Under the pieces are notes generated by a model, which worked only from the letters and a program-made list of their open reading frames with translations, searched no databases and was not told the origin of the DNA. From a virus (Duplodnaviria; Heunggongvirae; Uroviricota; Caudoviricetes), in the IMG/VR virus record IMGVR_UViG_2648501730_000022, positions 1 to 27,879 of that record: a DNA stretch of 27,879 nucleotides; one strand, given 5' to 3'. Both the position numbers and the translations under genes were made by a program. Shown piece after piece: positions 6,068 to 27,879 of this stretch (its first letter is position 1; every line of letters begins with the position of its first letter).

Positions 6068-6070
6068 AAA

Positions 6071-6445: not shown

Positions 6446-6453
6446 GAGCGGGT

Positions 6454-6807: not shown

Positions 6808-7314
6808 TTAAGAGATTTTCAAAGTCTGCTTAGTGCCAGTCTTCTTAATGTTATTGAGTAAAGCAGCCGGAGGATTGCTTAACCAATAGTAATGAAAACC
6901 GCTTTGCATACTGTTATAAGGAACAGTGACAGCAGCACCACCCAAATTAACGGTTATATTCCCCGCTCTACCGTTCTGGAGATATACAGCCATAGTAGGA
7001 GTACCGCCATTGAATTGACCAACGATAACGCCAATCAGACGCCCTACGCCCACGTTTTCGGGGTTCTCCATAGATCCTTTACCGCGCATGTCAGTTACTG
7101 GATAGTTTGAAGCAGTTACACCCCAGTTATTACCCAATGAAGTAGACCACGCAGCAGTAGCTACAACCGTATCCATACCACGACCACACATCGCACTCAT
7201 GTTAGCTGGGCGACTAACCTTTAATGCGTTCATTGCTGCGCTCATCCATCGTTGACCAGTTACAGAAACAGCAGATGACCCGACCCAGCCAGGCTTATTA
7301 ACGACATTCGCCAT
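6808..7314 (-). CDS. Hypothetical tail-associated protein (168 aa)
   Basis: ORF between the tail tube gene and the chaperones; Gly/Asn-rich beta-type composition; no recognisable motif. Confidence 0.35.
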   Translation of the reverse strand: MANVVNKPGWVGSSAVSVTGQRWMSAAMNALKVSRPANMSAMCGRGMDTVVATAAWSTSLGNNWGVTASNYPVTDMRGKGSMENPENVGVGRLIGVIVGQFNGGTPTMAVYLQNGRAGNITVNLGGAAVTVPYNSMQSGFHYYWLSNPPAALLNNIKKTGTKQTLKIS

Positions 7315-11513: not shown

Positions 11514-11544
11514 CTAGAATCACCTCACTATAAAACAGGAATAA

Positions 11545-11562
11545 GGGAGGCGTTAACCTCCC
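11545..11562 (-). terminator. Hairpin GGGAGG-CGTTAA-CCTCCC between the 277-aa gene and the fibre gene (attenuator-like)
   Basis: 6-bp GC stem followed by a U-rich tract on the minus strand, upstream of the fibre Shine-Dalgarno. Confidence 0.4.
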
Positions 11563-11594
11563 AACGTTCATGTTTTATTTAGGTAGGAGAATCC

Positions 11595-13325: not shown

Positions 13326-15332
13326 TCATTCAGCGGAGATGTGAAGAACTTTCAGAGCTTCCGGCTGAACTACGGTGAAGTCCAGGTCTACCCAGATACG
13401 CGGAACGATAGCAGACTGTGCGCGGTAAGTGGTGTCGTCCATATCCAGTTCCAGACCACCCCATTCACCGATCATGATACCGGAGAAGTCACCCAGAACG
13501 ATGTGGTCTGCCGGAATAACGCCAGAAGTAACTACATCGTAACCAGCCAGTTTGCCGTTTTCGATGATATAACCGGAAACGCCGTTATCTTTCAGGGTAG
13601 ATTCCAGTTCAGCAGCAGTTGCACCGCTCATTGCAAACTTGATGGACTGTGCCGGAACGCCAGCGTCGGTCAGTGCTGCAATTTCTTTCAGGAAGTCTTT
13701 GTAGCTAAAAGCGGCTTTCTTAGTAACGCGACCACCGTCTACCAGTTGCTTAACCAGACCTTTCGGACCGCGCTCGTTGTCTTTGTCAGACAGAATCAGT
13801 TGTTCCAGTTTGATCCGAACAGATTTGTTAATGTGATCAGTGATCAGGGTAGCAATATTCGGAACAGTTTTCAGAGACTGACGGCTGATCGGGTTGCCAC
13901 CAGCAAAAGTTTTCGGAGCCATTTTCACGTTTTCAAAGCTAGCCTTCGATTCGGGGGCACTTCCATTTTCATCAACAAAACCAAAGGCTTCGACGCTGGA
14001 AGCAGTCATTTTTGGTACTGCAATCGGGCTATTCAGACCAGACAGAACAGTCACACCCAGACGACCCAGAACAGACTGTGGAAGCAGCATTTCTACATAG
14101 GATTCGGTCAGCAGTTTTTCGTCGGTTACAGCGGTCAGAGTAGCTTTGGTGTTACCTTCGGAAGCAGCACGCAGAGCAGCAGCCGGAACGAATACAGAGC
14201 CACCGCGAGCAGCACGACCACGCTGCATTGCAGCACCAGCAGCCATAGCGGAATATTCAGCTTCGTTAGCGCCGAGCACGTCGCCATCTACCAGGGAGCG
14301 GATTACGTTATTAAGATCGAAAGTTTTTTCCATGATTTGTTCCTTATTAATTTGTTCGTTATTACGTTGAGCATTGGTAATGTTATTTAGTGCCTTAGTG
14401 CGGAATGCTTCCGGCGTCATATCTTTAACTGCCAATGCGCGTTCTAATTCTTCGTCGTTAATATTTAACTCACGAGCGATTGCTCGGATTTCTTCTTCGT
14501 CTTCTTCGGAACGTTCAGCCACTTCTTCGATTTTTTCTTCTTCAACCGGAGCGGCTTCACGTTCTTCTTTTACTTCTTCTGTTTCCCGAACAGTTGAACT
14601 ATCATCATCAACACTTTCAGGATGTTTAGCGTCTTTTCCGTCTTCGAGATTTTCATCTTCTTTATTCTCTTCAACTTGGCGCTCTTGAGTTTCTTCTACT
14701 TCCGGTTCTTTATTTTCTTCTACCGGAGTTTCTTCAACCTGAGCGGGTTCTTGTTCTTCTTTGATTTCTTCGATTTGTTCTTTAGTCATATCGCGTTTAG
14801 CCTCCAAATTAACTGTGATAGTATTTAGAGAGCGATTCAGACCCACGGTGTCGTCTGCGGGAACAGACACCCATGAAACCTCGTGAGGAATCCATTTAGT
14901 AACAATCAATTGTCCTTTGGTGTAGTCGATGTGATATTCTTTAATGTCATAACCGACAGAAATTTTTTCCATCGTACCTTCAATGACTTTATTACGAATA
15001 TCATTAGCCAAAGTGCCATGCTTAGAGAATTTAACCAGAGCACGACCTACGTTATCCGCATCGATTCGAGCGTTACAAACGACACCAATATGATTATCGA
15101 AATTATGATTGAACAGCAACGGAGCGTTATTATTCAGACGAGACAGATCAACCGCTTCCGGTGTATGTACCAGAATTTCATCTAATACCACCATTTCTTG
15201 ATTTTGCTCATCCCAGAATTGGCGCTGATAAGGCTGTTCACTGGAGAAAGCAATTTCAAATTCGTATTGATCATTCTGCCCTTCGTTAATAACTCCACCG
15301 TAACCGTTAAGATCGCGGCGAAATTTAAGCAT
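13326..15332 (-). CDS. Fused prohead protease (HK97/S78-like) / scaffold-like acidic coiled coil / major capsid protein (668 aa)
   Basis: N-terminal ~170 aa carry a His (HNFDNHIG) and the ExSxVxxPA signature (HEVSWVSVPADD) typical of HK97-family prohead proteases; residues ~180-300 are Glu/Lys-rich and helical; the C-terminal ~350 aa look like an HK97-fold capsid domain. Confidence 0.7.
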   Translation of the reverse strand: MLKFRRDLNGYGGVINEGQNDQYEFEIAFSSEQPYQRQFWDEQNQEMVVLDEILVHTPEAVDLSRLNNNAPLLFNHNFDNHIGVVCNARIDADNVGRALVKFSKHGTLANDIRNKVIEGTMEKISVGYDIKEYHIDYTKGQLIVTKWIPHEVSWVSVPADDTVGLNRSLNTITVNLEAKRDMTKEQIEEIKEEQEPAQVEETPVEENKEPEVEETQERQVEENKEDENLEDGKDAKHPESVDDDSSTVRETEEVKEEREAAPVEEEKIEEVAERSEEDEEEIRAIARELNINDEELERALAVKDMTPEAFRTKALNNITNAQRNNEQINKEQIMEKTFDLNNVIRSLVDGDVLGANEAEYSAMAAGAAMQRGRAARGGSVFVPAAALRAASEGNTKATLTAVTDEKLLTESYVEMLLPQSVLGRLGVTVLSGLNSPIAVPKMTASSVEAFGFVDENGSAPESKASFENVKMAPKTFAGGNPISRQSLKTVPNIATLITDHINKSVRIKLEQLILSDKDNERGPKGLVKQLVDGGRVTKKAAFSYKDFLKEIAALTDAGVPAQSIKFAMSGATAAELESTLKDNGVSGYIIENGKLAGYDVVTSGVIPADHIVLGDFSGIMIGEWGGLELDMDDTTYRAQSAIVPRIWVDLDFTVVQPEALKVLHISAE

Positions 15333-15352
15333 TTAATCACCTTTAATTAATT

Positions 15353-15369
15353 GGGGGCATTGCGCCCCC
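15353..15369 (-). other. Hairpin GGGGGC-ATTGC-GCCCCC between portal and capsid genes
   Basis: 6-bp G/C stem in the 45-nt intergenic gap. Confidence 0.45.
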
Positions 15370-15377
15370 GTTGGTTA

Positions 15378-16889
15378 TTAGGGATCGGTTTGAGAAGGGT
15401 TATCCTTGCTCTCACCATCAACGATAATATTTAGTGCGCTCTTTTCGGCTTGAATCTCTGAGAATACTTTTTCAGGATCATCACCACGTTCTAATATAAC
15501 GGCAGTACGTGATTTAAGTCCGTTATCAATTAAAGCAATCTCGGCGCTTACGTCTTTAAATGGATCGACGGATTCAAAACGAGGACGAATAATAGTAGTG
15601 TTCTCGATAATATGCGGAATTGCAGTAATACGAATCGGAACAATACCACGCGCAGAATAATGGCGTAGATATGCTTCAAAAATTGGCAATACCACTGTTT
15701 CAATCAATTTGTTTTGCAGTGCTTTAACGCGCGTTCTTTGAAGTAATTCGCCGTAGCGTGCGGCGCTGTAATTTATTTGGCTAGTATCGCCAGTTAAGCC
15801 CTGATTGAACACGCCAAGACCCATCGCTATACTCGTGAACATTCCATCATTGAAGCTGTTAAAGTCATCGCCGCTTTGCGTGGATTGAATACTCTTGATC
15901 GTTGCCCCTTCCGGTAATTCCTGAATAGTACCTGGCGCGAAATCGTGAATAACTTCCGGCGCTTGATATTGTTCATCATCTTCACCAGTATCAAAATCGT
16001 CACCAGAATCTTTCGGACGCTCGATGAACGCCATGCTACAACTTGAAATTCGTTTATGTACCAGTACAGCTTCGCGGAATGCGTCTTGATGTGCGATATC
16101 CTTAATCACTGGCAGGAAGTCAGTCACACCACGCAGAGATTCAGCCGCAAGTGGTTGATAATAATGACATACTTGCGAAGCATCTACGCGATAGTTATCA
16201 CCTGTGTAAGTCTGAGTCAGTAGGTTGATTTTACGAAACCAAAATGCAACAGGGCGCATTGTTTCTACGTCATACTCGATCCCCTGATAGATAGCGCGTT
16301 CTTTGCTTACTTCACGGTTGAGCGTCCAGTCGCACTTATCAGCAGACAGGATAGAAACATTTAACTCATTGTTTTCTTTGGTTAAAACTATGAAGCACTC
16401 ACCACCCATAACGCGCTCACGTTCAGCCATTACCAGCAATTCACGGAAGTTAAAGCGACCGTTACGAGAGAAGCGTTTAGCATTCTGCGCCCACTTCCAG
16501 AAAGCATTCTCGATCTGCTTATTCAGTGCGCTATCAAGTTTTCCATTTGATTTAACAACTGACGGCTTCGGATCTAGGCCAGTACCTACCACCATATCGG
16601 TGATGTATTGCGTGTAGCGACTGCCTACGGAGGTGTTTAAGGCCAGAGTACGACCCTGATCATAAAGGCGCTTACCATTCGATTTGAGAGCCTTATTGAA
16701 GGTTCCTGTGATAGTATCTTGTTGAAGCGATCCATCAATGCGATCACCAACCAGACCTAAACTTCGAGTAGCCAGAGATTTCTGGAATTTTTCTACTTGT
16801 TTGTCGATAAAGATTTTTTGTTGTTGCTGGCGGTGATTAGTTTTAACTGGAGTTTCTACCGCCTTTTTGCGTCGAAAAAGATTAAACAT
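15378..16889 (-). CDS. Portal protein, lambda gpB-like (503 aa)
   Basis: ~500 aa protein between the gpW-like and capsid genes; GGGG Shine-Dalgarno 6 nt before the ATG; acidic C-terminal region. Confidence 0.8.
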   Translation of the reverse strand: MFNLFRRKKAVETPVKTNHRQQQQKIFIDKQVEKFQKSLATRSLGLVGDRIDGSLQQDTITGTFNKALKSNGKRLYDQGRTLALNTSVGSRYTQYITDMVVGTGLDPKPSVVKSNGKLDSALNKQIENAFWKWAQNAKRFSRNGRFNFRELLVMAERERVMGGECFIVLTKENNELNVSILSADKCDWTLNREVSKERAIYQGIEYDVETMRPVAFWFRKINLLTQTYTGDNYRVDASQVCHYYQPLAAESLRGVTDFLPVIKDIAHQDAFREAVLVHKRISSCSMAFIERPKDSGDDFDTGEDDEQYQAPEVIHDFAPGTIQELPEGATIKSIQSTQSGDDFNSFNDGMFTSIAMGLGVFNQGLTGDTSQINYSAARYGELLQRTRVKALQNKLIETVVLPIFEAYLRHYSARGIVPIRITAIPHIIENTTIIRPRFESVDPFKDVSAEIALIDNGLKSRTAVILERGDDPEKVFSEIQAEKSALNIIVDGESKDNPSQTDP

Positions 16890-16899
16890 GATTTACCCC

Positions 16900-17394
16900 T
16901 TATCGCGTAAGACGTAATTTGATATTTTTAATCGGACTAATTCCCTGTTTACGTCGTTCGGCTTGAATTAATTTAGATAACTGACGTTCATAATCAGTCT
17001 TTAATTGCTGGAGAACAGCCAATGACTCATAGGCGAAAGTATTCCCTTTCACTGTCATTTGAGATAATGCGGCTTCGTCCCCAGATAAACGGGCGAAAAT
17101 AACTTGCTCGATTAAGGCGATAGTTTCCCGCAGATATTCTTTTTTGGATTGTTTGGCGAATACTGGCAAAACAGTTAATTCCTGCATTGATACCAGTTCT
17201 TCTTCCAAAGTTATTACGATGGTATATTTACCTTCGGCAAAATCTAAGGTTTTAATCTCATGATTAGCCGGAGAATCATCAACCTGATAGATAATACCTT
17301 TATTATTTCCTACCTGAATTGTTACACCCTCTTCATTCGCCAGCGTGACTTTTTCGCCTTTACGAATTACTAAGGGAATTAGTTCTAAACTCAT
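16900..17394 (-). CDS. Head-tail joining protein with gpW-like C-terminal half (164 aa)
   Basis: C-terminal ~70 aa follow the lambda gpW pattern (recalled, not aligned); sits between large terminase and portal as in lambda A-W-B. Confidence 0.45.
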   Translation of the reverse strand: MSLELIPLVIRKGEKVTLANEEGVTIQVGNNKGIIYQVDDSPANHEIKTLDFAEGKYTIVITLEEELVSMQELTVLPVFAKQSKKEYLRETIALIEQVIFARLSGDEAALSQMTVKGNTFAYESLAVLQQLKTDYERQLSKLIQAERRKQGISPIKNIKLRLTR

Positions 17395-17442
17395 AATTAC
17401 CCCTTATTTAATTGTTATTGGATTAACAATATTTAGGAGTAA

Positions 17443-17461
17443 GCCGCCCCGAAGGACGGCG
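17443..17461 (-). other. Hairpin with UUCG tetraloop downstream of the large terminase stop
   Basis: Minus-strand RNA CGCCGUCC-UUCG-GGGCGGC (one G-U pair); no U-run, so more likely a stabiliser or pause site than a terminator. Confidence 0.4.
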
Positions 17462-17466
17462 AGTTA

Positions 17467-19371
17467 TTAGAACGATGTTACCCAGCTACGGCCTCTATTT
17501 GGGCGTCTGGCGATGTTTTTACGTTGTGGTCGTGTGATTGGCTTATTTTCTTCGATTTGCTCGTCAGATTGCGATTTAGGAGCTTCTACGGGTTCTTCTG
17601 GTTCGCGGTTCAAACTATCTTTGATGGCTTCGAGTTTTTCCCATGACATTTTATTGAGTACATGGCGAGAAGCAGCATAGGAATAAGCCAGGCAGTCGAG
17701 AGCCTCGTTTCGTTGCTGACCAACTTTTACCCAACGTGTGGTATTACCCTGCCGTTTCAACTGTTCAGATAACAATTGTTCGCAGTAGTCATCAGGAACG
17801 TCACCAATCTGGAAGACCGTATGAGGATCGCTGTCTCTCAAGTTCCGGTTAATCATTTCACGGATCATCGTCTTAAGGTTGTTTACGCCCAGAATTTTAA
17901 GAGTAAAACCACCCGTTCTTGTGTCCTTGACCGGAAGGATTGGAGCATCAACATTGCTTGCCCCTTTAATGGCGCATAGGTTTTGCCACCTAGTGCAGAA
18001 GCGATAGATCACGTTTGTAGCTCGTCCGTTCGATGAGTCCACGAAAGCAGATAGCATCGGGATTCGTTGACCTGATCGGGTATAGAATTTAGCTTTCAGG
18101 AAGTTGTAAAGCTGGTCATATGCTGGCGATTCGTGGCGTTCGCAGTTCACATCATAGAATGATCGGTGATCAACTACGCATATCCCCTTACGAGAGATAC
18201 CCAGCAAGGTAGATTCCAGACGGTCTTTTTGCTGGTCAACTCCACCTACCAGAGCCAGAACATCATCAGGAATATTATCTAAGCTAATGTCAGTTTTCAG
18301 CGTTTCCAGTTCGTCGGCTGTGCGGTCTTCGTTAAGATCATCGAAGGTTTCACCGAGCACCACATTATAGAACGTTGCCAGTGACATATTCGCGTAGCTA
18401 TCAGCAAAGTCCACCACACACGCACGGATAGAACTAAACGGAGACATAAGGCGGTTAGCATGAAAACCGATTACTTCCGCATTTGGTTCGGTGGCGACCC
18501 ATTCTCCCTGAGCAACAGCACGGAGGCGATCTGGTTCTGACCAATCAGTTTCACATGACGGGCAACGGTAAACGGCTGTGTCTGGATTCGGCAGTGATTT
18601 ACCATTGATTACATGCCAATCAAAGAATACTCTACTCCATTCCATTACGTGTTTGTGTCCGCAATGCTGGCAAACGACGTGGTATTTTCTTTTATCCGAG
18701 AGTTCCCATTGTTGGTTTATCGCCCCATCCCGCGAAGTTGGAGTAGAAGCAATTACGATCCTTGCATCATCACCGAAAGTGGTTGCGCGTTGTTCCGCTA
18801 GCTGGATCGGGTTCCCTTCGTCTGACTCATCAGCCGCATCAACTTCATCCAGAATAATCAAAGGCAGTGTCTTACCGCGCAAGTGTGATGGACTGTTCAG
18901 CGACATGAAATACATGAATGATCCGTTACGAAGCTGAATAATCGATGAGTTGTTAACGGCATTGCGATCTGATTTGTCGGTGATCATCGCCTTTAATTCT
19001 GGGGTTGCCTCTAATACTGGCTTCACCTTACCCGCAATCCATGAGTTCAATTCTCGAACGTTCGCTTGCAAAACACCGATATTAGTAGGGTTACTGGCGA
19101 TCCTGTGAAAGATAATACCGTTTAGCACAAGAGTTTTACCCAACTGTGCCGAGCACTTTAGCACAATTTTTCGCCTATCTTCGGTGATCGCGTCCATCAT
19201 TCCACGTTGGAAGGGATGCAACTTAATTAGAGATCCGGCTTTAACACCATCGGTTGCAACTACATTAGCCTCTACCCATTCGCTAGGTTTCATCGTTTTA
19301 GGTGGGCGAATTGCCGCAGAGATATTTTTAAGAATCTTTTTTAATTTGGCCTTATTAGAAATCAGTTTCAT
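17467..19371 (-). CDS. Terminase large subunit, lambda GpA-like (634 aa)
   Basis: Walker A motif (KCSAQLGKT) near the N-terminus; Cys-rich segment (CQHCGHKH...CPSCETDW); size and position match lambda gpA (641 aa). Confidence 0.9.
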   Translation of the reverse strand: MKLISNKAKLKKILKNISAAIRPPKTMKPSEWVEANVVATDGVKAGSLIKLHPFQRGMMDAITEDRRKIVLKCSAQLGKTLVLNGIIFHRIASNPTNIGVLQANVRELNSWIAGKVKPVLEATPELKAMITDKSDRNAVNNSSIIQLRNGSFMYFMSLNSPSHLRGKTLPLIILDEVDAADESDEGNPIQLAEQRATTFGDDARIVIASTPTSRDGAINQQWELSDKRKYHVVCQHCGHKHVMEWSRVFFDWHVINGKSLPNPDTAVYRCPSCETDWSEPDRLRAVAQGEWVATEPNAEVIGFHANRLMSPFSSIRACVVDFADSYANMSLATFYNVVLGETFDDLNEDRTADELETLKTDISLDNIPDDVLALVGGVDQQKDRLESTLLGISRKGICVVDHRSFYDVNCERHESPAYDQLYNFLKAKFYTRSGQRIPMLSAFVDSSNGRATNVIYRFCTRWQNLCAIKGASNVDAPILPVKDTRTGGFTLKILGVNNLKTMIREMINRNLRDSDPHTVFQIGDVPDDYCEQLLSEQLKRQGNTTRWVKVGQQRNEALDCLAYSYAASRHVLNKMSWEKLEAIKDSLNREPEEPVEAPKSQSDEQIEENKPITRPQRKNIARRPNRGRSWVTSF

Positions 19372-19458
19372 GTAATTACCCTCATTACGAAATATGAAGG
19401 TATTTATTAAATTGTTGATATTTTGATAAATACGGGTATTAAGATTTAAGGGGGGTGT

Positions 19459-20064
19459 ATGCTAATTAATCAGCAAGAAAGAGATGAATTAGAATTAGCC
19501 TTGTCTTGTTGTACCGATCATGAATATCGTTTGCCAGTTAAGCACCATCACAAGAAGACTGATTACACTACATCCGGTTTTAGTCGCGAAGAAGCGAAGC
19601 AAATTTTAATCGAGTTGTATCGCGATCATGGGTATACAGATATCCATAACTTCTTTAAGAAGCACCGAACATCACAGACAGAGTTTCAGCGAGTCCGTGA
19701 ATGGTTTGATTTTGATATCAAGCGTTATTATCGAGTGGATGACGGTCCAATCTATCGGTTGCAGTGGAAGCCGATCAGGGAAGTGCTTAAACAGAAGAGA
19801 TTGAATCATGCCATTACACGCTATCGTAACGTGGCTTTCAAGAAAGGCTATGGTGATACAAGGGAATTGTTTGTAGAACTCGCTAACGTGCGATATAGCC
19901 ATTATTACAGGAATCCTAAAGAGTTCTTCGAAGTGCTGCGCAAGGTTGATATAAGTCGGGGTACATACTATTCACGGTTGAAGAAGTACGGGATTAAGGC
20001 AGAGTTTTTTATGTCAGTTGACGATGGAGAACTTTTTCCGATAAAATGTAAGTCCTCTAAATAA
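19459..20064 (+). CDS. Hypothetical basic protein with C-terminal HTH-like motif (201 aa)
   Basis: GGGGGG Shine-Dalgarno before the ATG; divergent from the terminase gene across an 87-bp gap; C-terminal SRGTYYSRLKKYGI resembles the 59-aa protein at 23335-23514. Confidence 0.5.
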   Translation: MLINQQERDELELALSCCTDHEYRLPVKHHHKKTDYTTSGFSREEAKQILIELYRDHGYTDIHNFFKKHRTSQTEFQRVREWFDFDIKRYYRVDDGPIYRLQWKPIREVLKQKRLNHAITRYRNVAFKKGYGDTRELFVELANVRYSHYYRNPKEFFEVLRKVDISRGTYYSRLKKYGIKAEFFMSVDDGELFPIKCKSSK

Positions 20065-20098
20065 AGGTGAACATTCACTTTAATTTGGAGAAATGACT

Positions 20099-20323
20099 AT
20101 GACTACTAAAGCTACTCGCGGTCGTCCTGCCCGTTTTAATCGTGAACAACTGGCAGAGATTGTAAAAGCGTACTATCAAGCACCGAAAGGTAAAGAGAAC
20201 AAAGAACGGGTATTAAATGAGCATGGCTTATCTATAGCCCAGCTATACAAATCCCTACATAAAGTTGATTTGAAATTCTTTGTTCAGGTTGACGGTGAAA
20301 TGGTAGAAGCAACAGGAAATTGA
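20099..20323 (+). CDS. Small DNA-binding protein with RGRP (AT-hook-like) N-terminus and HTH, 74 aa
   Basis: Start moved to the second ATG (20099), which has a GGAG Shine-Dalgarno ~8 nt upstream. Paralog of the 23335-23514 product (shared RP.(R/K)F.RE..(A/V)(E/D)I.K). Confidence 0.5.
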   Translation: MTTKATRGRPARFNREQLAEIVKAYYQAPKGKENKERVLNEHGLSIAQLYKSLHKVDLKFFVQVDGEMVEATGN

Positions 20324-20331
20324 TTCTCTAG

Positions 20332-20358
20332 GCCAATCCTTCGGGGTTGGCTTTTTTT
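20332..20358 (+). terminator. Rho-independent terminator with UUCG tetraloop
   Basis: GCCAAUCC-UUCG-GGGUUGGC followed by U7, 9 nt after the TGA stop. Confidence 0.75.
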
Positions 20359-20372
20359 ATACCTACAGATAC

Positions 20373-20397
20373 AAAAAAGCCCCTGAAATTCAGGGGC
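20373..20397 (-). terminator. Rho-independent terminator of the Rha operon
   Basis: Minus-strand stem GCCCCUGA / UCAGGGGC followed by U6 (plus-strand A-run 20373-20378), just below the Rha stop. Confidence 0.7.
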
Positions 20398-20405
20398 AAA
20401 AATTA

Positions 20406-21203
20406 TTACAGTCCGAAGTGTTCTAGCGATCCAACATTCTGACGAATCATGATAGTCGCTTTATTCTGAATCATGATCGTGTTATTCGGTTTAGGCAGTG
20501 TCAAAGCTGCTTTTTGTTCTTCTTCAAGAACACCCAATTCAACCAGCACCGGAAGCACATCAACAGTGAAAGAAAGTTGATAGTGAGCGTTCATGCTGCA
20601 AAACGGTATCGCGGAATCATTAGCAACATACCCACACGGCTTGTTATTTTCATCATAGACGCGCTCAATGTATCCGGCAGTACGTAAGGCCGTCAGTGCT
20701 TCTTTAACCTTCGTAGCGCCCTTTTTAGCACCTAACAGACGCGTCATTGAATGGCTATCTACGGATTTGCGATGATGTAGAGTAATCAGTTGCTTGTTCT
20801 CGCGAGTTTTCTTTAACGCCAGTTCGATCCAGTCGGTTTCTTCAAAGTCTGCATACGGGTTAACGGCTAAACGTTCCTGACGCAGTTTTTCATTTTCTTC
20901 TTTCAGTCGTTTCCATTCCTGAATAACAATCATTCGACGTTTAACATCGTAACCAGTAACAAGAGTCAGCGTCATTTCTTCGTCAAGGTGATATTCGGTT
21001 TGTTCGCGTCCATATTGGTCAAAATAGATACGCTGAGATTTCAGCGCATCTAATTCAAGTGCTTTAAACATCTTAACAATATCAGCTTTAACGTTTTTGT
21101 GTTCTTTTCCGGTAAATTCAGCGATCTGACGAGAAGACATGGTCAGTGGTTTGGTGTTATCAACAACCAGAGACACGGAAGCAGTTTTAACAGCAGTATT
21201 CAT
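20406..21203 (-). CDS. Phage regulatory protein Rha family (antirepressor-like), 265 aa
   Basis: N-terminal LTMSSRQIAEFTGKEHKNVKADI matches the Rha-domain signature; AAGGGGGA Shine-Dalgarno before the ATG. Confidence 0.75.
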   Translation of the reverse strand: MNTAVKTASVSLVVDNTKPLTMSSRQIAEFTGKEHKNVKADIVKMFKALELDALKSQRIYFDQYGREQTEYHLDEEMTLTLVTGYDVKRRMIVIQEWKRLKEENEKLRQERLAVNPYADFEETDWIELALKKTRENKQLITLHHRKSVDSHSMTRLLGAKKGATKVKEALTALRTAGYIERVYDENNKPCGYVANDSAIPFCSMNAHYQLSFTVDVLPVLVELGVLEEEQKAALTLPKPNNTIMIQNKATIMIRQNVGSLEHFGL

Positions 21204-21287
21204 AGTAAAAATCCCCCTTAACGGTTTAGTGATTTAATCCTCCCTGTTCCGGCATCACCACCGGAACAATTTTATTTATAAGAAGTT

Positions 21288-21440
21288 TTATCTCGTTTTG
21301 TATTCAGCCAGGCAGCGATCAATTTCTTCTTGAATCTGGCGCTGGCGTTCGTGGTAATCAACCATCGAGAAATTCAGGTTTGGTGTCCACGGCTTGCGGT
21401 TCGGGTTTTTACGTCCATCAATTTTCTTAGTAGTATTCAT
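21288..21440 (-). CDS. Small basic protein (50 aa); not in the ORF track
   Basis: ATG (rc of 21438-21440) with AGAGGA Shine-Dalgarno ~9 nt upstream; translation MNTTKKIDGRKNPNRKPWTPNLNFSMVDYHERQRQIQEEIDRCLAEYKTR; TAA at 21288-21290. Confidence 0.35.
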   Translation of the reverse strand: MNTTKKIDGRKNPNRKPWTPNLNFSMVDYHERQRQIQEEIDRCLAEYKTR

Positions 21441-21562
21441 AGTTCACATCCTCTTTACAAACCTAGGTCAAATCAGTTCAAAGTTGTCAAGTGCGATAAT
21501 CATAAAAAAGTCTGAAAATTTTGCCAATACCCCTTGACAAGATGCCAAAGGGTTGACCTAAC

Positions 21563-22030
21563 TTACAGCATATCTAAGCCTTCATCGTAACCGTAGAAGC
21601 CACCGTGAGAAGAAAAAGCGATTGGTGCGTAGTCATCATCATCTTCGTCTTCTTCATCGCGTTCTGGTGCTTTCTGAGCGGTTTCTTTGCCGTAGTTAAA
21701 CATTGCTTCATCCAGTTCTTGAAGAGTAAAGAAGCTACCCAGATCAACATCACCGGAACGGACTTCGAAAGGAAGGTATTCGCTAACGATGATCGCTGGA
21801 ATATTCTGGTACTTTAAGCGGCCTTCATCGGTGAAGACGTTAACAACAATGGTCGGCTTCTTATTACGGCAAAACGCATACCATACACTAGAGAAATGAG
21901 ATTCATCAGAGTTGAAAAGAATGTTGTAACCACGTTCAACAAAGATCTTCATTAACTTGTCATTGTGGAAGCTATCAGCATCAAAACCTAACAGGATGAA
22001 AGGAGTAGTGGTAGTCATTTTATGGTTCAT
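21563..22030 (-). CDS. Hypothetical protein with strongly acidic C-terminal tail (155 aa)
   Basis: AGAGGA Shine-Dalgarno before the ATG; C-terminal ERDEEDEDDDDYAPIAF...; first gene leftward from the long intergenic region. Confidence 0.5.
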   Translation of the reverse strand: MNHKMTTTTPFILLGFDADSFHNDKLMKIFVERGYNILFNSDESHFSSVWYAFCRNKKPTIVVNVFTDEGRLKYQNIPAIIVSEYLPFEVRSGDVDLGSFFTLQELDEAMFNYGKETAQKAPERDEEDEDDDDYAPIAFSSHGGFYGYDEGLDML

Positions 22031-22645
22031 AGTGGAAATCCTCTAAAAGAAAGCGAATCAATCTAATATTATTTATAAAGAGAAAATTCTTGTTATTATG
22101 AAAAGAGTGATCTGGTAGAGTCCAAAACTGGTCTGTACTTGAAAGATGATTGGATTCAGTCGGGCTAAAGCCCCCCTTCATAGATTTGATTAAATCATCA
22201 TCAAAACGAAGAAGTATCTTTAGAATATAAGAATCTTTCTTTTGAAGAAATAATAATCAGGAAGCAATTTAGCAACCGAAGGTTGCAATCCCGAAGGGAT
22301 ACCAATACCTTTCTAGAAATTGATTGTTACTCACTTCGTTCGTTTACTAGAATCAGTTAGTAACTAGTATTAAATCCCTTTCTAAGAAAATCCTTTTAAA
22401 AGTGAGTGAACGCCGTAGGCGTGAACGTGAGCGAAGCGAACTATCAATCCCTTTCGAATCCTGCTTGCAGGTCTTAGAAGGTGTTGGTGGGCGCTACGCG
22501 CACGGCTACGCCGTATTCTTTTTGCGAGATCTTTCTTGAACGTAGTGAGAGAAAGCGAGCAAAAAGGAGAACGTTAGTTCGAATTTTATATTCTATGGTC
22601 TGTGGGGTATAATACCTTTCAAGGTCATACACTTACGTGATTGAA

Positions 22646-22764
22646 GTGTAGGGTTAGTGTAGGTGTGTAGGTTTCATAGTGTAGGTTTGAGGGTGTTATA
22701 GTGTAGGTTTACTGGCTAGTGTAGTGTAGGCCAATCCCTTTAAAGGGTAGGTGTGTAGTGTAGG
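22646..22764. repeat. Iteron-like direct-repeat array, 7 copies of GTGTAGG (mostly GTGTAGGTTT)
   Basis: Copies begin at 22646, 22657, 22665, 22679, 22701, 22724 and 22758, same orientation, irregular spacing; the 12-bp palindrome CCCTTTAAAGGG (22735-22746) sits inside the array. Confidence 0.7.
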
Positions 22765-22961
22765 TTTTCAATCAAAAATTTTGACAAAAAATTCTTGTAT
22801 ATTATTCAACCAAAAAACCACCAAAAATAGATGTAAATTCATGATTTAAAAGAAATTTTCAAAAGATCTCCGTGCCATATAAGGTTTAAAAGGTTGATAA
22901 TCATTATTTGCCATTTTCAAACAAAAATTTTGATACACCTTTCTCGCTTAGATCATGAATG

Positions 22962-22990
22962 TTGACATGTGTCAAGAACTATTTTATACT
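22962..22990 (+). promoter_or_regulatory. Near-consensus sigma70-type promoter with operator-like palindrome over the -35
   Basis: TTGACA (22962-22967), 17-nt spacer, TATACT (22985-22990); TTGACAtgTGTCAA is a 14-bp palindrome. Confidence 0.5.
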
Positions 22991-23128
22991 TTTTATCCTT
23001 GGTAGGGGTTGAAATTTTCCAAACAATCCCCATATAGATGATAAGCATGATTTTTCGTGTATAAATACAATGCATGAAAAATGATTGTTCACTTCTGAAA
23101 ATCCCTTGACTAACTGTTAATTCATACA

Positions 23129-23155
23129 GCACTGGTTAGATATGCAGTGCTTTTT
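23129..23155 (+). terminator. Intrinsic terminator ~140 nt downstream of the promoter
   Basis: GCACUG-(10-nt loop)-CAGUGC followed by U5. Confidence 0.5.
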
Positions 23156-23334
23156 CGGTCGAATATTGTACGAATTGATTAATTATTAATCTTCTCTTTA
23201 GCAATTCGTGCTCCCACTGATCGGATATACAGTTGTTTTACAGAGTTTTTGAAAATCATTTTTATAAATAGAATTGTTCAGAGCGAAAAGCTCTTTTTTA
23301 AGGAATTATTAATCCACATGTGAGGAATCGATTT

Positions 23335-23514
23335 ATGGCTAGACCTGTTAAATTTACTCGTGAAATGATTGTTGATATTGCTAAACGGTTTTACAGCGAC
23401 ACTGAGCGAGGCGGGGAAAACTTCTTTAAGAAGGAAGGGATTGATAGAAGCGGATTCTATAAGCTAATGAAGAAATACGAAATTCAGGTAAAGATTAACG
23501 TTCAAGTTTGTTAA
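23335..23514 (+). CDS. Small HTH protein, paralog of the 20099-20323 product (59 aa)
   Basis: ATG at 23335 has a GAGGAA Shine-Dalgarno 7 nt upstream (the track start is a GTG with none); MARPVKFTREMIVDIAKRFY... aligns with the other paralog. Confidence 0.5.
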   Translation: MARPVKFTREMIVDIAKRFYSDTERGGENFFKKEGIDRSGFYKLMKKYEIQVKINVQVC

Positions 23515-23630
23515 TCCACTTTCACTGAGAATTATATGATGGCTTTAAAAATAAAAAGCCTCCCTTGTTGCAGCAAAGGAGACTTGAAATGAACAATTAA
23601 AACTAACACAGCATTCAGGAGTATTTATAA

Positions 23631-24656
23631 ATGAAAAATTCTAAGCGCATCACCTTCAACCTATTCATCAAATCCAACGGCAAACTGAACATTACCGTTA
23701 TGGAAGGTAAAGCAAGCAAACAAGACAAATCCTTTGAAGTAGTATCCGGTAAGACTCTGACCGAAATGCGTCAGAATGCTGGCATCAAAGACGGTGCTGA
23801 ATGGCAGATCACTAACCGTTTCGACAAACGTCACGTTAAACCTACACTGGTAGAAGGTGAATCCGTTTATTGCTTCGCTCGTGCTGTTAAAGCCGATGAA
23901 ACTTACTATCTCGCTGTTATTAAAACTGCTTCCGGCTTCCGTGCTGTAATGCATCACAAGAGCAAGCGTAACGAATACGGCGTAGAGACCCAGGAAGTTG
24001 CAAAACGCTTCCGTACTGTTGCTACTGAATCCACTGTAAAGGATGTTTCTGGTACTGTTAACACCGCTAAAGGCGGTTCCTTCTACAACCACGCATTACA
24101 GGTTACTTCCTCCTTCTTCTGCAAAAAAGAAGCACAGAAAGAAGTTGCTCCGGTAGTAGTTGAAGAAGTTAAAGAAGAAGTTGCAGTGGTTGAATCTTCC
24201 GAAGTTGAAGCACTGAAAGCACGCATTGCTGAACTGGAAGCTGAAAACGCATCTCTGAAAGCTGAACTGGCAGCGCAGGAAACCACTTTCGAAGTAGCAG
24301 CGGTTGAAGTTGAAGCAGTTGAAGAAAAATCCATTGATGAAGAACTGGAAGAACTCCTTAACTATCGCTGGGGTAACGGTGAAAAAGTAGGACAGGAAGA
24401 ACAGAAAGAAGCTGATCCGGTAGTAGTTCCGGTTGAAGAAAAATCCGCACCTGTTACTAACTTTGAATCCCTGCGCAATAACTTTATGGCTAAATTCAAA
24501 ACCACTTGGGAAGATACCGAAGAAGAACAAGAAGAGATTGAAGTAAACGAAGACGAGATCCGCGAAGCACAGATGGCACTGCATGACGCTATCTATGACA
24601 CCAACTACAGCGCCTACGCCTACGCCTACGCCTACGCCTACGCCTACGCAGCTTAA
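23631..24656 (+). CDS. Strongly codon-optimised acidic protein with (AY)6-AA C-terminus (341 aa), function unknown
   Basis: AGGAG Shine-Dalgarno 9 nt before the ATG; codon use is almost exclusively CTG/CGT/GGT/AAA/GAA/ACC/TTC, unlike neighbouring genes; central Glu/Val-rich coiled coil; ends ...SAYAYAYAYAYAYAA. Confidence 0.7.
   Translation: MKNSKRITFNLFIKSNGKLNITVMEGKASKQDKSFEVVSGKTLTEMRQNAGIKDGAEWQITNRFDKRHVKPTLVEGESVYCFARAVKADETYYLAVIKTASGFRAVMHHKSKRNEYGVETQEVAKRFRTVATESTVKDVSGTVNTAKGGSFYNHALQVTSSFFCKKEAQKEVAPVVVEEVKEEVAVVESSEVEALKARIAELEAENASLKAELAAQETTFEVAAVEVEAVEEKSIDEELEELLNYRWGNGEKVGQEEQKEADPVVVPVEEKSAPVTNFESLRNNFMAKFKTTWEDTEEEQEEIEVNEDEIREAQMALHDAIYDTNYSAYAYAYAYAYAYAA
24612..24647 (+). 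repeat. Hexanucleotide microsatellite (GCCTAC)x6 encoding the (AY)6 tail
   Basis: Six perfect tandem GCCTAC units in frame at the 3' end of the 341-aa gene. Confidence 0.9.
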
Positions 24657-24671
24657 TAGAGAGGTAATTCT

Positions 24672-24914
24672 ATGATTAATCAAAACAAAGAATTTCTTGG
24701 TAATCTGATGTTAGAAATTACCAAAATGAAAGAAAGAATGGTAGCGATGGAATCAGAGATTAAAACTCTTAAAGCTGATAATAAGGCGTTGAGAAAGTCC
24801 TTAAAACTGATTGATGAGACTAATGCGGTTATGATGGATCAGGTGTTTCCTGAGTGGCGAAATGAAACTAAACCTACACAACATAAGAAACCTACACTTC
24901 GAATTGTTGCATAA
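24672..24914 (+). CDS. Small coiled-coil protein (80 aa)
   Basis: AGAGG Shine-Dalgarno before the ATG; starts 16 nt after the upstream stop; helical K/E-rich sequence. Confidence 0.5.
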   Translation: MINQNKEFLGNLMLEITKMKERMVAMESEIKTLKADNKALRKSLKLIDETNAVMMDQVFPEWRNETKPTQHKKPTLRIVA

Positions 24915-24936
24915 AAAAGGGACTCCGAAGAGTCCC
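24913..24936 (-). terminator. Hairpin terminator with UUCG tetraloop (minus-strand U-run; may also stop the plus-strand operon)
   Basis: Minus-strand RNA GGGACUC-UUCG-GAGUCCC followed by U6. Confidence 0.6.
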
Positions 24937-25013
24937 TAGTAAGTTTAGGTTAGGTTTGCACAACAAAGATGAGGTTATAATGAACATAATGCTACATTAT
25001 TCTTTAAAGCCAG

Positions 25014-25037
25014 AAAAATAACCGCCCCGAAGGGCGG
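25014..25037 (-). terminator. Rho-independent terminator with UUCG tetraloop
   Basis: Minus-strand RNA CCGCCC-UUCG-GGGCGG followed by a U-rich run (UUAUUUUU). Confidence 0.6.
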
Positions 25038-25195
25038 GAGGATTAATACTCAATCTATACTTGTTATGTTTTTGTGTTGTATAGATCACTGACTATGAAA
25101 ACACTGTACTGGAGTGTGTTTTATGGCTTTTAATCGGGAATCCTCAAAGAAGATCCCCTGTTAATAACCATAAGGAGAAAAGGCAGATTACACTA

Positions 25196-25369
25196 TTATT
25201 TAGTATCCTTTTTACAGCAACTAAAAAGAATAAACAGGATTAAGCATACCCAGCCGTAAGGCGTACCGATTAGAAATTTGAAAAACACCACCAGCGATAT
25301 AAAAATCAATTTAATGCCAGCGACGATAGTCAAAAACAGCAGAGTAGCAAAGTAGACAAAAAGATCCAT
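25196..25369 (-). CDS. Small hydrophobic membrane peptide, two predicted TM segments (57 aa); not in the ORF track
   Basis: ATG with AGAGGA Shine-Dalgarno ~8 nt upstream; translation MDLFVYFATLLFLTIVAGIKLIFISLVVFFKFLIGTPYGWVCLILFILFSCCKKDTK. Confidence 0.4.
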   Translation of the reverse strand: MDLFVYFATLLFLTIVAGIKLIFISLVVFFKFLIGTPYGWVCLILFILFSCCKKDTK

Positions 25370-25422
25370 AGATAATCCTCTTTGAAAACGACCATCATCT
25401 ATAGTTCAATTCATCGATTTAA

Positions 25423-25524
25423 TTAATGATACTTGAAAGCGTTACACACAGTAGAAATGCCAATGTGAGCAAGTGAATATACGATAGTTAATCCTACAGC
25501 CAGATAAATCAAAAATTCAACCAT
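25423..25524 (-). CDS. Small hydrophobic peptide, one predicted TM segment (33 aa); not in the ORF track
   Basis: ATG with GAGGA Shine-Dalgarno upstream; translation MVEFLIYLAVGLTIVYSLAHIGISTVCNAFKYH. Confidence 0.3.
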   Translation of the reverse strand: MVEFLIYLAVGLTIVYSLAHIGISTVCNAFKYH

Positions 25525-25554
25525 AGGTAAATCCTCAAATAAGAAAAAGGTTAG

Positions 25555-25573
25555 CGGGGGATGTTCTCCCCCG
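25555..25573 (-). other. Hairpin CGGGGGA-TGTTC-TCCCCCG between the 184-aa gene and the peptide genes
   Basis: Same 7-bp stem as the hairpin at 7987-8005; followed on the minus strand by a U-rich tract. Confidence 0.5.
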
Positions 25574-25624
25574 TAGACGTTGACCAGCTCAACATCCTTC
25601 ACGTATATGTTTAGTATCTAATTT

Positions 25625-26179
25625 TTAAGACACATCAAATTCATCGTCTTCTTCTGGTTCTTGTTCCGGTTCATCCATTAATGCTAATTCTTCTTCCTCG
25701 TCTTCTCCCAAATCTGCATTTTCGAACAAGTCCCCTACTTCATTTAAACGACGTTCGATGATCTCCCTTAGCTTATTCTTCAATGTTTTCTGATCAGTGG
25801 CGGATTCTAAAATTTCTAGGGCATCGATCGTACAAATCTGCAAAATAGTCTGTTTCACTTTCCCGCAGTATTCCGCTAGTTCCTGTTCTACATAACCGAC
25901 AGGAATCAGGAGATTCATTTTTTCCTGGTTCTCTCGTTCGGCTGCATCTGCCAAAGCACGTTCACGGCGTAATTTCTCTACGTCGATTTGTTCTTTGATA
26001 GAAGTTTGTTTAAGCGGGTTGATAATATTTTTCAAGACCCATTCTGTTCCTTCTTTGGCTGGCACGCGGCGGGTATTGGTGTTAAATGGCAATCCCCTTT
26101 CTAACCATCGCTTACCGCCACCATTCAATGTATAGCCATATAAACGGGAAATTTCTGTAAGGGTTAATTCTTCTTTCAT
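25625..26179 (-). CDS. DNA-binding protein, possibly terminase small subunit (lambda Nu1-like), 184 aa
   Basis: N-terminal HTH-like LTLTEISRLYGY, then GGGKRWLERGLP and EKLRRERA, recalled as resembling Nu1 (181 aa); acidic C-terminal tail. Confidence 0.4.
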   Translation of the reverse strand: MKEELTLTEISRLYGYTLNGGGKRWLERGLPFNTNTRRVPAKEGTEWVLKNIINPLKQTSIKEQIDVEKLRRERALADAAERENQEKMNLLIPVGYVEQELAEYCGKVKQTILQICTIDALEILESATDQKTLKNKLREIIERRLNEVGDLFENADLGEDEEEELALMDEPEQEPEEDDEFDVS

Positions 26180-26537
26180 TGGTTATCCTCCATTAAATTT
26201 GCGTAATTTTATTTATTGGTTTTACGCACAATCTAAGCGCCTAAATCGCATTCTAACGAAGGGAAAGATCCAGTAATGGTAAGGGTTAGGAAGTGGGTTA
26301 ATAGTCGCGTAGCGACCGCGCCATAAGTGAAGTGATCACGTTTTAGAATCTCACACGCACATCAAATACCAGGGTGCCGAAAACTCCCTTTATTTCATCC
26401 ATGGAACAGTACCTTTTTAATTTGTCAAGTATTAATTTCTTAATTTAATTACTAAATCTCACCCCAATAATTGAAAAAATATCAAAAATCAATAAAGTAA
26501 GCATCTAAAAGTCAGTCCATACCAAAAGAGGTATAAA

Positions 26538-27305
26538 ATGAAAAACATTATCGCTGCTATCATGCTTTCTGCTACTGCTTTCGGTGCTGATGCTGCGTCC
26601 TTTGATTGCACTAAGGCTACTACCAAATCAGAGAAGTTTATTTGTGCTAATGAGTCAATCTCCGCACTGGATTCTAAACTTCATGAAGTATATGTTAAGG
26701 CTGTTAAGATTAATCCGTCTCTTAAACAAGAGCAACGTAACTGGAATAAAACTGTTCGTGACACAATGATCAATATCGGGCAGATTCAGCCACTGGAGGC
26801 TGTATACAACGCTCAAATCCAAAACTTGATGAATGTATTATCTAAAGAAGAAACCGCGTCAGGGAGCGTTTCAGAGACTTCTGCGAAGGTTGAAGAAGAA
26901 CAACCGAAACAGGAAGAAAAAGTGGTGGAAGAACCGAAGGTTGAAGATAAACCAAAAGGATTTACCGGAGACATGACATTGCAATGCGATGTTCACTATA
27001 GCTGGGAAATCCAAGACGGGGTAGAAACAAAAGCAGTTAAAGACATTGGCTATCCTCGTTATAACTCTGGTGAACTTAAACTTAAAGTAAAAGACGGGGA
27101 AATTATTGAATTTGTGTATCGTGATAATTATGACGCGCATAAAGCAAAGACAAAAACAGTGACGCATCAGAATGGCGCAATGCAATATGAAGGCCAAGTG
27201 GATAACAAAAAATATTATGTGTGGCGTGATAATCAAGATATGATTCGCTTAGAAGTACATAAAAAATATTCAAGAACATACATTGACCAGTACGGGTGCA
27301 AATAA
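26538..27305 (+). CDS. Secreted protein with LprI / DUF1311-like N-terminal domain (255 aa)
   Basis: Signal peptide MKNIIAAIMLSATAFGADA; then FDCTKATTKSEKFICANESISALDSKLHEVY...QRNWNK, the DUF1311 pattern; AGAGG Shine-Dalgarno before the ATG. Confidence 0.6.
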   Translation: MKNIIAAIMLSATAFGADAASFDCTKATTKSEKFICANESISALDSKLHEVYVKAVKINPSLKQEQRNWNKTVRDTMINIGQIQPLEAVYNAQIQNLMNVLSKEETASGSVSETSAKVEEEQPKQEEKVVEEPKVEDKPKGFTGDMTLQCDVHYSWEIQDGVETKAVKDIGYPRYNSGELKLKVKDGEIIEFVYRDNYDAHKAKTKTVTHQNGAMQYEGQVDNKKYYVWRDNQDMIRLEVHKKYSRTYIDQYGCK

Positions 27306-27528
27306 TTATGAAATTCAATAACATGAAGATCACAAAAGATTGGTGGGATGCGATGAAAGCTAACCACCAGAACGATATTAATTAAGTAACATTTTAGATA
27401 TACAGCACCCAGCTAACAGATCACCTTTTATGGATTTCATTATAACCCTTTTGATCTGGAAACTATGTTAATTAGTTGATTTCTAAGCCTTGTCCTTGTG
27501 ATGGGGCTTTTTATTGCAAAATTTTTAG

Positions 27529-27879
27529 TTATTTGGGGTTGACTACATTCGGGTTGCCAATTCGCCTGGCTAACTCTTGCTGAGTGATTTCTGACTGTAA
27601 AAAAGCATTTAACAGCAATACCTTAGAGGCGACGCTCAAAGGTACTTCAATAAAATGATCGTGACTATTTAATGGCGAAGGTAACGGGATAAGCTCGTTA
27701 TCTTCAAAATAAAAATCAAATGCGGTCAGTAAAGCATCTTTTGCCGCTTCCATCGCTTCAGCGACAGTTTCGCCCTGGGTCAACGCTTCAGGGATATCCA
27801 CAAAAGAAACCATATAACCGCCTTCCGGCGCGGGTGTAAGAGTGACGGGATAACGCATAATTTCGACTGTCTCTCGCAT
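27529..27879 (-). CDS. hicB: HicB antitoxin N-terminal domain with C-terminal HTH truncated; probable host gene interrupted at the prophage junction
   Basis: MRETVEIMRYPVTLTPAPEGGYMVSFVDIPEALTQGETVAEAMEAAKDAL... is a HicB N-terminal domain and matches my recollection of E. coli HicB. The ORF stops at ...QQELARRIG-NPNVVNPK*, inside the first helix of the expected Xre-type HTH. The ATG is at the window edge. Confidence 0.65.
   Translation of the reverse strand: MRETVEIMRYPVTLTPAPEGGYMVSFVDIPEALTQGETVAEAMEAAKDALLTAFDFYFEDNELIPLPSPLNSHDHFIEVPLSVASKVLLLNAFLQSEITQQELARRIGNPNVVNPK

Follow-up and report, generated by a model that had tools for sequence, protein, structure and literature searches.

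Compact helix-turn-helix (HTH) domains are known from the OrfA proteins of IS3/IS1-type transposases, from the C-terminal domains of Hin and of Tn3/gamma-delta resolvases and from Fis-type proteins. In Hin, an N-terminal arm contacts the minor groove beside the helix-3 site. Here, we analyzed a 27,879-nucleotide (nt) stretch of a Caudoviricetes genome (IMG/VR record IMGVR_UViG_2648501730_000022, positions 1 to 27,879; hereafter, the window), which encodes three small hypothetical proteins of 201, 74 and 59 amino acids (aa) in the vicinity of an iteron-bearing noncoding region. An original prediction had described these proteins as three paralogous HTH modules that share an RGRP N-terminus, flank the regulatory region and form a competing or partner DNA-binding system for it. 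Our analysis indicates that the proteins are very probably paralogous HTH DNA binders. The best explanation of the data as a whole, which we adopt with modest confidence, is that they consist of lineage-specific basic HTH modules that were duplicated and act as transcription regulators of the prophage.

The open reading frames (ORFs) of the three proteins were correctly placed in the original prediction, and the RefSeq annotation of Escherichia coli strain C325 agrees on all three. The proposed alignment of the 74-aa and 59-aa proteins over most of their length was recovered by BLASTP (E=1e-7, 32% identity, 60 aa). The HTH-like motif anticipated in the C-terminus of the 201-aa protein is also present: SRGTYYSRLKKYGI and DRSGFYKLMKKYEI were both found, and residues 134-187 of this protein match the 59-aa protein with E=5e-7. 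A second segment of the 201-aa protein, residues 41-88, matches the 59-aa protein as well (E=0.004); the N-terminal and C-terminal copies in the 201-aa protein are hereafter called module 1 and module 2. Formal alignment, suggested as a check, yielded similarity far above chance: in a Smith-Waterman shuffle control with the window sequences, z-scores were 11.3 for the 59-aa versus the 74-aa protein and 9.6 for the 59-aa protein versus module 2, and 0 of 2000 shuffles were as good as the observed alignment.

Profile comparisons gave the same picture. Homologs of the three proteins were gathered into families of 6, 25 and 37 clusters (the last of these for the 201-aa protein), all from E. coli, Salmonella or Proteus, and aligned separately (alignments A1-A3) as well as in a combined module alignment of 41 members (A4). 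With hhalign, the 59-aa family matched the 74-aa family at E=3.9e-9, module 1 at E=1e-9 to 7.9e-9 and module 2 at 1.7e-9. The two modules of the 201-aa protein matched each other at E=1.5e-5, and the 74-aa family matched modules 1 and 2 at E=3.6e-5 and 1.9e-4, respectively. A near-invariant Arg-Glu pair opens helix 1 in all four modules of A4. Taken together, the profile, BLASTP and shuffle statistics establish that the paralogy is real. The number of modules had been put at three, however, and this count does not stand: from its sequence, the 201-aa protein is an internal tandem duplication, which brings the total to four modules in three genes. A search of the whole prophage with the module hidden Markov model (HMM) found no fifth copy.

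The modules are predicted to be tri-helical HTH domains followed by a beta-hairpin. In the AlphaFold2 model of the 74-aa protein, built with the combined alignment as input, a disordered arm (residues 1-10) precedes helices at 15-27, 32-41 and 46-55 and a beta-hairpin at 60-71; the predicted local distance difference test score (pLDDT) is 76 overall and approximately 78-88 in the core. The model of the 201-aa protein contains the three-helix plus hairpin unit twice (43-100 and 135-195), together with an N-terminal helix (aa 3-16) and low-confidence stretches before and between the modules; across both models, the cores have a pLDDT of approximately 80-90. Contrary to the original prediction, the three proteins do not share an RGRP N-terminus. 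This element is confined to the 74-aa family, in which the arm reads T-R-G-R-P-x-R-F with R7, G8, P10 and R12 invariant (T-R-G-R-P-A-R-F in the window), whereas the 59-aa protein begins M-A-R-P-V-K-F, as part of a family-wide invariant MARPVKFTRE, and neither module of the 201-aa protein carries an RGRP or ARPVK arm in the family alignments. Accordingly, an R-G-R-P within a basic segment predicted to be unstructured, which recalls an AT-hook, occurs in the 74-aa family alone (pLDDT <50 at residues 1-10). All three proteins are basic, with isoelectric points (pI) of 9.5 (201 aa), 9.6 (74 aa) and 9.6 (59 aa), and so is each module taken separately (pI 9.0-9.6).

These features would fit a single lineage-specific, basic DNA-binding unit of approximately 60 residues that was duplicated within the prophage lineage. 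Helix 3 of each module is predicted to read DNA and, by analogy with Hin, the basic flexible arm (RGRP in the 74-aa and ARPVK in the 59-aa protein) may lie in the minor groove beside the helix-3 site. With two modules in one chain, a single molecule of the 201-aa protein could read two adjacent half-sites.

The trio of genes is present in 33 of 33 related prophage loci, namely five RefSeq E. coli loci, 26 IMG/VR contigs, a Proteus contig and a divergent lineage (L012), and the usual gene order is that of the window. The three genes are under purifying selection: in E. coli-E. coli and E. coli-Proteus pairs, the ratio of nonsynonymous to synonymous substitution rates (dN/dS) is 0.07-0.11 for the 201-aa, 0.16-0.17 for the 74-aa and 0.12 for the 59-aa protein. 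These data bear on the notion that the modules are domesticated or decaying fragments of the OrfA type from insertion sequence (IS) transposases, or spurious ORFs, without function in the phage. Such an origin might be read into the best weak Pfam match, to HTH_Tnp_1 (E=0.05), and into the structural neighbors of the module, among which PDB 2jn6 and a phage protein labeled 'transposase', the top neighbor in BFVD, rank high. However, strong purifying selection (dN/dS 0.07-0.17 overall), the maintenance of the ORFs with their ribosome-binding sites (RBSs) in 33 loci across genera, with a single in-frame TGA splitting the 201-like gene of L012 (5527-6351), and the fixed position of the genes, with no transposase catalytic gene or inverted repeats nearby, are hard to reconcile with it. 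On grounds of selection and synteny, we reject IS remnants and attach almost no credence to this explanation.

The flanking of the regulatory region holds for one of the genes only. The 59-aa gene adjoins the 1.3-kb noncoding region, whereas the operon of the 201-aa and 74-aa genes is three minus-strand genes away from it. In L012 and in a further locus (L021), the 201-like gene, broken by an in-frame TGA, and a 71-aa homolog with an RGRK arm are located directly between the iteron cluster and the 59-type gene, and the Rha-like gene runs straight into the gene for the large terminase subunit (TerL). This arrangement implies that all three genes are tied to one control region.

We then considered whether the HTH proteins read the iterons. 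The iteron core GTGTAGG occurs seven times on the plus strand in a cluster at 22646-22764, recurs in inverted orientation at 23841, 24873 and 24891, within the operon of the 59-aa, 341-aa and 80-aa genes and at its 3' end, and is found only once elsewhere in the 27.9 kb. At the position of this cluster, other loci have other iteron types in place of the GTGTAGGTT iterons of the window type, among them TTCAGGGGCA, spaced by 21-22 bp, and the CTAGGGAT of Proteus. Among 31 loci, the window-type 341-aa protein accompanies the iterons in 16 of 16 GTGTAGGTT loci versus 0 of 15 others; where aligned directly, the protein shows 93-100% identity in the former and 21-25% in the latter. The HTH proteins behave differently. 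The 59-aa protein occurs as two alleles, A and B, with 55% identity to each other; an identical 59-aa protein (WP_021515494.1) accompanies both GTGTAGGTT and TTCAGGGGCA iterons, allele B likewise goes with both, and all four combinations of allele and iteron type exist. An identical 74-aa protein also accompanies both iteron types, and identity between loci with different iterons is 89-99% for the 74- and 201-aa proteins. Because covariation with the iterons is perfect for the 341-aa protein and absent for the HTH alleles, the iterons belong to the 341-aa protein.

Thus, the view that the paralogs are competing or partner binders of the iterons, as an initiator with its inhibitor or through handcuffing, is very unlikely. 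It could appeal to the location of the 59-aa gene approximately 570 bp downstream of the iterons, to the 201-like gene that begins right after the iteron cluster in L012 and to the predicted DNA binding of all paralogs. Nevertheless, switches among GTGTAGGTT, TTCAGGGGCA and CTAGGGAT always accompany a switch of the 341-aa protein, and identical 59-aa and 74-aa proteins are each found with both GTGTAGGTT and TTCAGGGGCA; on the strength of this covariation, we reject the HTHs as iteron readers, and the competing or partner system of the original prediction is not supported. The probable iteron reader is instead the 341-aa protein, a candidate origin-binding initiator that has no family matches in the libraries scanned. 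Together, the iterons and this protein suggest an origin plus its initiator; the latter would combine a reader domain at the N-terminus with an acidic/coiled-coil linker, an architecture that loosely recalls lambda O. A hexanucleotide repeat (24598-24651) encodes (Tyr-Ala)n at the C-terminal end of the protein, with 6 YA units in the window, 11 in C325 and 2 in three other loci (L002-L004).

A distant 59-type protein places the 59-aa gene in a wider context. This protein, P0081 (64 aa, MARPVKFTRE...), is encoded in a 168-kb T4-like contig (L008, ena:ERZ27275837:k141_13924), between gp2 and a gene that adjoins the dNMP kinase gene and is probably gp3, judging from its position and a weak tail-tube Pfam match. 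The surrounding cassette (4894-6625 of the contig) has the same architecture as 22180-24914 of the window: it comprises approximately 560 nt of noncoding DNA with GC hairpins, iterons of the type AGCGATTAC spaced by 22 bp, a promoter that by eye resembles sigma-70 sites, the HTH gene, a hairpin and genes for proteins of 204 and 80 aa. The 204-aa protein shows homology to the 341-aa protein, in the N-terminal part of the latter (E=3e-10), and the 80-aa protein is a coiled coil. A scan of viral contigs with the 204-aa protein yielded no match. Another distant relative, P0095 in L011, was tried as a further cassette and set aside, as the DNA upstream of it appears to be coding and the match, at E=3.6e-4, is weak.

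Sequence comparison thus indicates that the 59-aa gene is part of a portable cassette comprising the noncoding region, iterons, the HTH protein, a 341-aa-like protein and an 80-aa coiled coil, and this cassette looks like a module exchanged between temperate and virulent phages. The presence of a 59-type HTH within it in a lytic T4-like phage argues that the job of the 59-aa protein is internal to the cassette. Among T4-type genomes, iterons have a precedent in the oriE of T4, but what they do there is unsettled (PMC3016281).

The same observations invite a reading in which the modules are accessories of DNA transactions, with the 59-aa protein in origin remodeling or loading and the 201-aa and 74-aa proteins in cos/packaging recognition, or with a role in the directionality of the serine integrase. 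It would account for the 59-type HTH traveling with iterons and a 341-aa-like gene into a lytic T4-like phage, and for the 201/74 operon adjoining TerL while the small terminase (TerS) is displaced by 6 kb; furthermore, an arm plus an HTH is typical of recombinases and transposases. Yet a small terminase of phrog_57 is already present, the 59-aa allele is uncoupled from the iteron/341-aa type, and the HTH alleles stay the same between prophages integrated at hicB and at ycdX; on this ground, we rejected them as recombination directionality factors (RDFs) tied to the integrase type. The known RDFs of large serine integrases act by protein-protein contacts, not through an HTH. We consider an accessory role of this kind rather unlikely.

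We therefore return to transcription regulation. That the three HTH proteins are the phage's own transcription regulators is a proposition for which the balance is about even, and it draws on position, co-occurrence and elimination. It is supported by the lack of a CI/Cro-type HTH among the scanned prophage proteins, and by the 59-type HTH that heads the cassette in the T4-like phage, where no lysogeny function is needed. The scan for a repressor took in the regulatory-region genes, TerL, the head-tail joining protein, the neighbors of the recombinase and several lysis-side ORFs, and most tail and head genes were assessed by RefSeq product names alone. Within this scope, neither the three HTH proteins nor other prophage ORFs matched Cro/CI-type models (Pfam HTH_3 and relatives), and no other recognized regulator domain was found except in the Rha-like protein. 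The predicted DNA binders among the scanned proteins are the three HTH proteins, Rha, TerS, the recombinase and the 341-aa protein.

Under this scheme, the 59-aa protein would most likely control the cassette promoter (22962-22990) or the 345-nt leader, by analogy with Cro-like or Cop-like autoregulators. The 201/74 operon, which is separate and lies back-to-back with the terminase/late operon, would most likely set the early/late or the lysogeny decision, and its candidate targets are the 87-bp spacer between TerL and the 201-aa gene and/or the AATCCCTTTC-type motifs of the 1.3-kb control region. The spacer contains a direct repeat, TTGATAttTTGATA, and parts of it are alike in E. coli and Proteus when four loci are compared side by side by eye. 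A broader version, namely, that the lineage runs both its lysis-lysogeny and its early-late programs on one HTH module in four copies, with the 59-aa protein as the regulator of a mobile origin cassette, strikes us as doubtful.

Several points weigh against a regulatory role. None of the three proteins reaches a model threshold in Pfam, PHROG, NCBIfam or PADLOC. The nucleotides linked to alleles A and B are confined to the 59-aa gene and its RBS (23307-23517), and because allele-linked positions lie only there, no operator is inferred. The assignment of TTGACAnnTGTCAA at the -35 element, of TTGATAttTTGATA in the TerL/201 spacer and of the AATCCCTTTC motifs as operator sites is guesswork. Finally, the missing repressor is an argument by elimination, and RNA-based immunity or another ORFan could fill that role.

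The control region and its surroundings contain further signals. A sigma-70-like promoter at 22962-22990 matches the consensus at 11 of 12 positions, with its -35 element inside the TTGACAnnTGTCAA palindrome; no other strong promoter-like site serves the 59-aa operon, and this one lies 345 nt 5' of the start codon. The conserved 345-nt leader includes two terminator-like hairpins (~23128-23160 and 23280-23300), which hint at control by attenuation or antitermination. Farther upstream, 22230-22640 folds far better than shuffled sequences as a plus-strand RNA (z=-5.0, compared to -2.85 for the minus strand), has no match in Rfam and might act as a primer/R-loop RNA or form a long 5' untranslated region, and two adjacent C(UUCG)G tetraloop hairpins are predicted on the minus strand at 22270-22300. 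The motif AAT(A/C)CCTTTC, often followed by TAGAA, occurs on the plus strand at 22304, 22373, 22389, 22446, 22611, 22733 and 23100. It is kept in the Proteus relative (L006, 10880-11620) despite different iterons, marks the junctions of swapped mosaic segments and may represent either a site bound by a protein or a boundary of recombination. Between the 59-aa and 341-aa genes lies a strong hairpin (23556-23585), with counterparts in Proteus L006 and in the T4-like cassette, that reads as a minus-strand intrinsic terminator; an antisense transcript covering the 5' end of the 341-aa gene may stop at this hairpin. The terminator hairpin of the Rha-like gene (20379-20397; 5489-5499 in L005) contains TTCAGGGGCAA, the exact unit of the alternative iteron type, regardless of the iterons that the locus carries.

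Table 1. Positions of the HTH genes, their modules and neighboring features in the window
Feature	Position	Strand	Basis or remark
Divergent TerL/201 intergenic region, 87 bp	19372..19458		Candidate control region for the 201/74 operon and late genes
201-aa gene	19459..20064	+	ORF; two tandem HTH modules; homologs down to 51% identity
Module 1 of 201-aa protein (aa ~40-100)	19576..19758	+	hhalign; module HMM domain score 88.5 bits
Module 2 of 201-aa protein (aa ~134-195), holds SRGTYYSRLKKYGI	19858..20043	+	BLASTP, hhalign; module HMM 107 bits
74-aa gene	20099..20323	+	ORF, family alignment, AlphaFold model
59-aa gene, first of the 59 > 341 > 80 operon	23335..23514	+	ORF, family alignment
Noncoding control region, 1.3 kb	22031..23334		Structured GC-hairpin segment, AATCCCTTTC-type motifs, iterons, AT-rich stretch, promoter, leader
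Iteron cluster	22646..22766	+	7 GTGTAGG cores, 22-bp spacing of central copies
341-aa gene	23631..24656	+	Alleles 21-25% identical go with different iterons; not an HTH paralog
TerL (gpA type)	17467-19371	-	Window gene order
Rha/Ant-like, 50-aa and 155-aa genes	Between the 201/74 operon and the 1.3-kb noncoding region	-	
Convergent intrinsic terminators	20330-20397	+ and -	+ (20330-20353) ends the 201>74 operon; - (20397-20379) ends the Rha-like operon
155-aa gene	21563-22030	-	First of the leftward operon
Two small membrane ORFs and small terminase phrog_57 (25625-26179)	3' of the 80-aa gene	-	
LprI-family gene, then truncated hicB	After the small terminase		

The neighboring features are listed in Table 1. 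The window span 14001-24600, the only one compared base by base, is identical to that of E. coli strain C325; beyond it, the two differ in a short repeat. The prophage, approximately 35 kb long, sits in hicB and carries a large serine recombinase at its far end (L002, 13607-48892), and the 19400-23399 region is carried by 58 of 5426 complete E. coli genomes (~1%). A variant prophage (L005) is integrated at ycdX. The best match of TerL among cultured phages has 44% identity, and neither the region (megablast) nor the 59-aa, 201-aa, 341-aa, P0081 and L008 204-aa proteins (tblastn) matched anything in INPHARED or PLSDB. No replication enzyme was recognized among the scanned proteins or the RefSeq product names of the ~35-kb prophage, and Rfam at permissive thresholds gave nothing in 19000-27879. 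The small terminase matches phrog_57 at E=6e-11 and is Nu1/DUF1441-like in L012, where a defense-like reverse transcriptase-TIR gene (10543-12174) lies beside it. TerS is approximately 6 kb away from TerL, with the whole early/regulatory region in between, which is an unusual layout. The 155-aa protein has a strongly acidic C-terminal tail (EDEDDDDY...DEGLDML) and might be an anti-defense or DNA-mimic protein; the length of its slot differs among related prophages. The tail fiber gene (8013-11513) shows ~80% DNA identity to the distal subunit of the long tail fiber (gp37) of RB49-like T-even phages, and 6808-7314 corresponds by position to an L002 gene labeled in RefSeq as a Gp38-type receptor-recognizing protein. 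The gp37-like tail fiber and the Gp38-type gene add to the evidence for exchange of this siphophage lineage with T4-like phages.

The analysis assigns a predicted fold and a likely role to three hypothetical proteins, defines a new HTH family with a clear duplication history and attributes the iterons to a particular protein. Should the proposed regulatory roles prove right, the prophage would offer a compact model of a phage circuit built by duplicating one DNA-binding module. The cassette is the more intriguing lead than the HTH family: shared with a T4-like phage, it could count among the few documented examples of an origin/initiator unit that is portable and moves from temperate to virulent phages or the other way.

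To place the modules among known HTH proteins, we compared them with sequence and structure libraries. PADLOC-DB defense models gave no match to the three proteins at E<=0.1, and a PDB sequence search with the module profile returned chance-level matches only. In Pfam, the 74-aa protein scored 14.1-14.2 bits (E ~0.05) against HTH_Tnp_1 (PF01527), below the gathering cut-off of 24.1 bits, and the commonest weak matches in A4 were to UPF0175 (8 of 41 members) and HTH_Tnp_1 (7 of 41, best E=0.017). No match to HTH_8 (PF02954, cut-off 22 bits) was obtained at E<=1 for any of the 41 members, whereas the distant relative P0095 scores 19.3 bits against it. An exhaustive profile search, run against 1.8 billion representatives, retrieved 32 proteins. 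Beyond the three families, the profile search reaches proteins of 300-980 aa with 5-8 matched repeats, and these repeats pass Pfam HTH_23, HTH_28, HTH_Tnp_1 and HTH_7; since single repeats score only 5-22 bits, the significance of such matches comes from summing repeats. Scans with the 59-aa family, of which the genome scan covered one genome per species, retrieved only the same prophage family and NtrC-type HTH_8 domains. The 59-aa protein shares 39% identity over 44 aa, including helix 1, with the Fis-type HTH_8 domain of an NtrC-family sigma-54 activator, a match that was chosen by a pattern scan, so that its E-value is not database-wide.

The HTH of IS3/IS1-type transposase OrfA (HTH_Tnp_1 and the related HTH_23/HTH_28) is the best weak Pfam match, aligns with the module from its arm to helix 3 (profile positions 2-42) and shares with the module the pattern RGRPxxF-x-x-E followed by a hydrophobic helix, but the modules occur without a transposase partner or IS context. 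Among Fis/NtrC-type HTH_8 domains, the resemblance is in helix 3, where the module signature GI(D/S)R(S/G)x(F/Y)Yx(L/R)(M/L)KKY(E/G)I recalls GINRGTLRKKLKKYGMN of Fis; however, the hhalign match to Fis spans only 18 columns with 28% probability, and Fis-type domains have neither the arm nor the hairpin. The C-terminal domain of Hin and Tn3/gamma-delta resolvases (HTH_7) is also among the nearest relatives, and its minor-groove arm in Hin is the counterpart to which we liken the RGRP arm. Cro, Cox/Apl, Ner and the tandem-HTH monomers MarA, CENP-B and the paired domain show no sequence kinship with the modules. As no member of A4 reaches a Pfam threshold, we regard the modules as an HTH family not yet classified, which lies close to the domains of the transposase-OrfA, resolvase and Fis types but outside each of them. 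Thus, the 201-, 74- and 59-aa proteins make up an HTH sequence family that is new but belongs to a very familiar kind of protein and probably performs an ordinary regulatory job.

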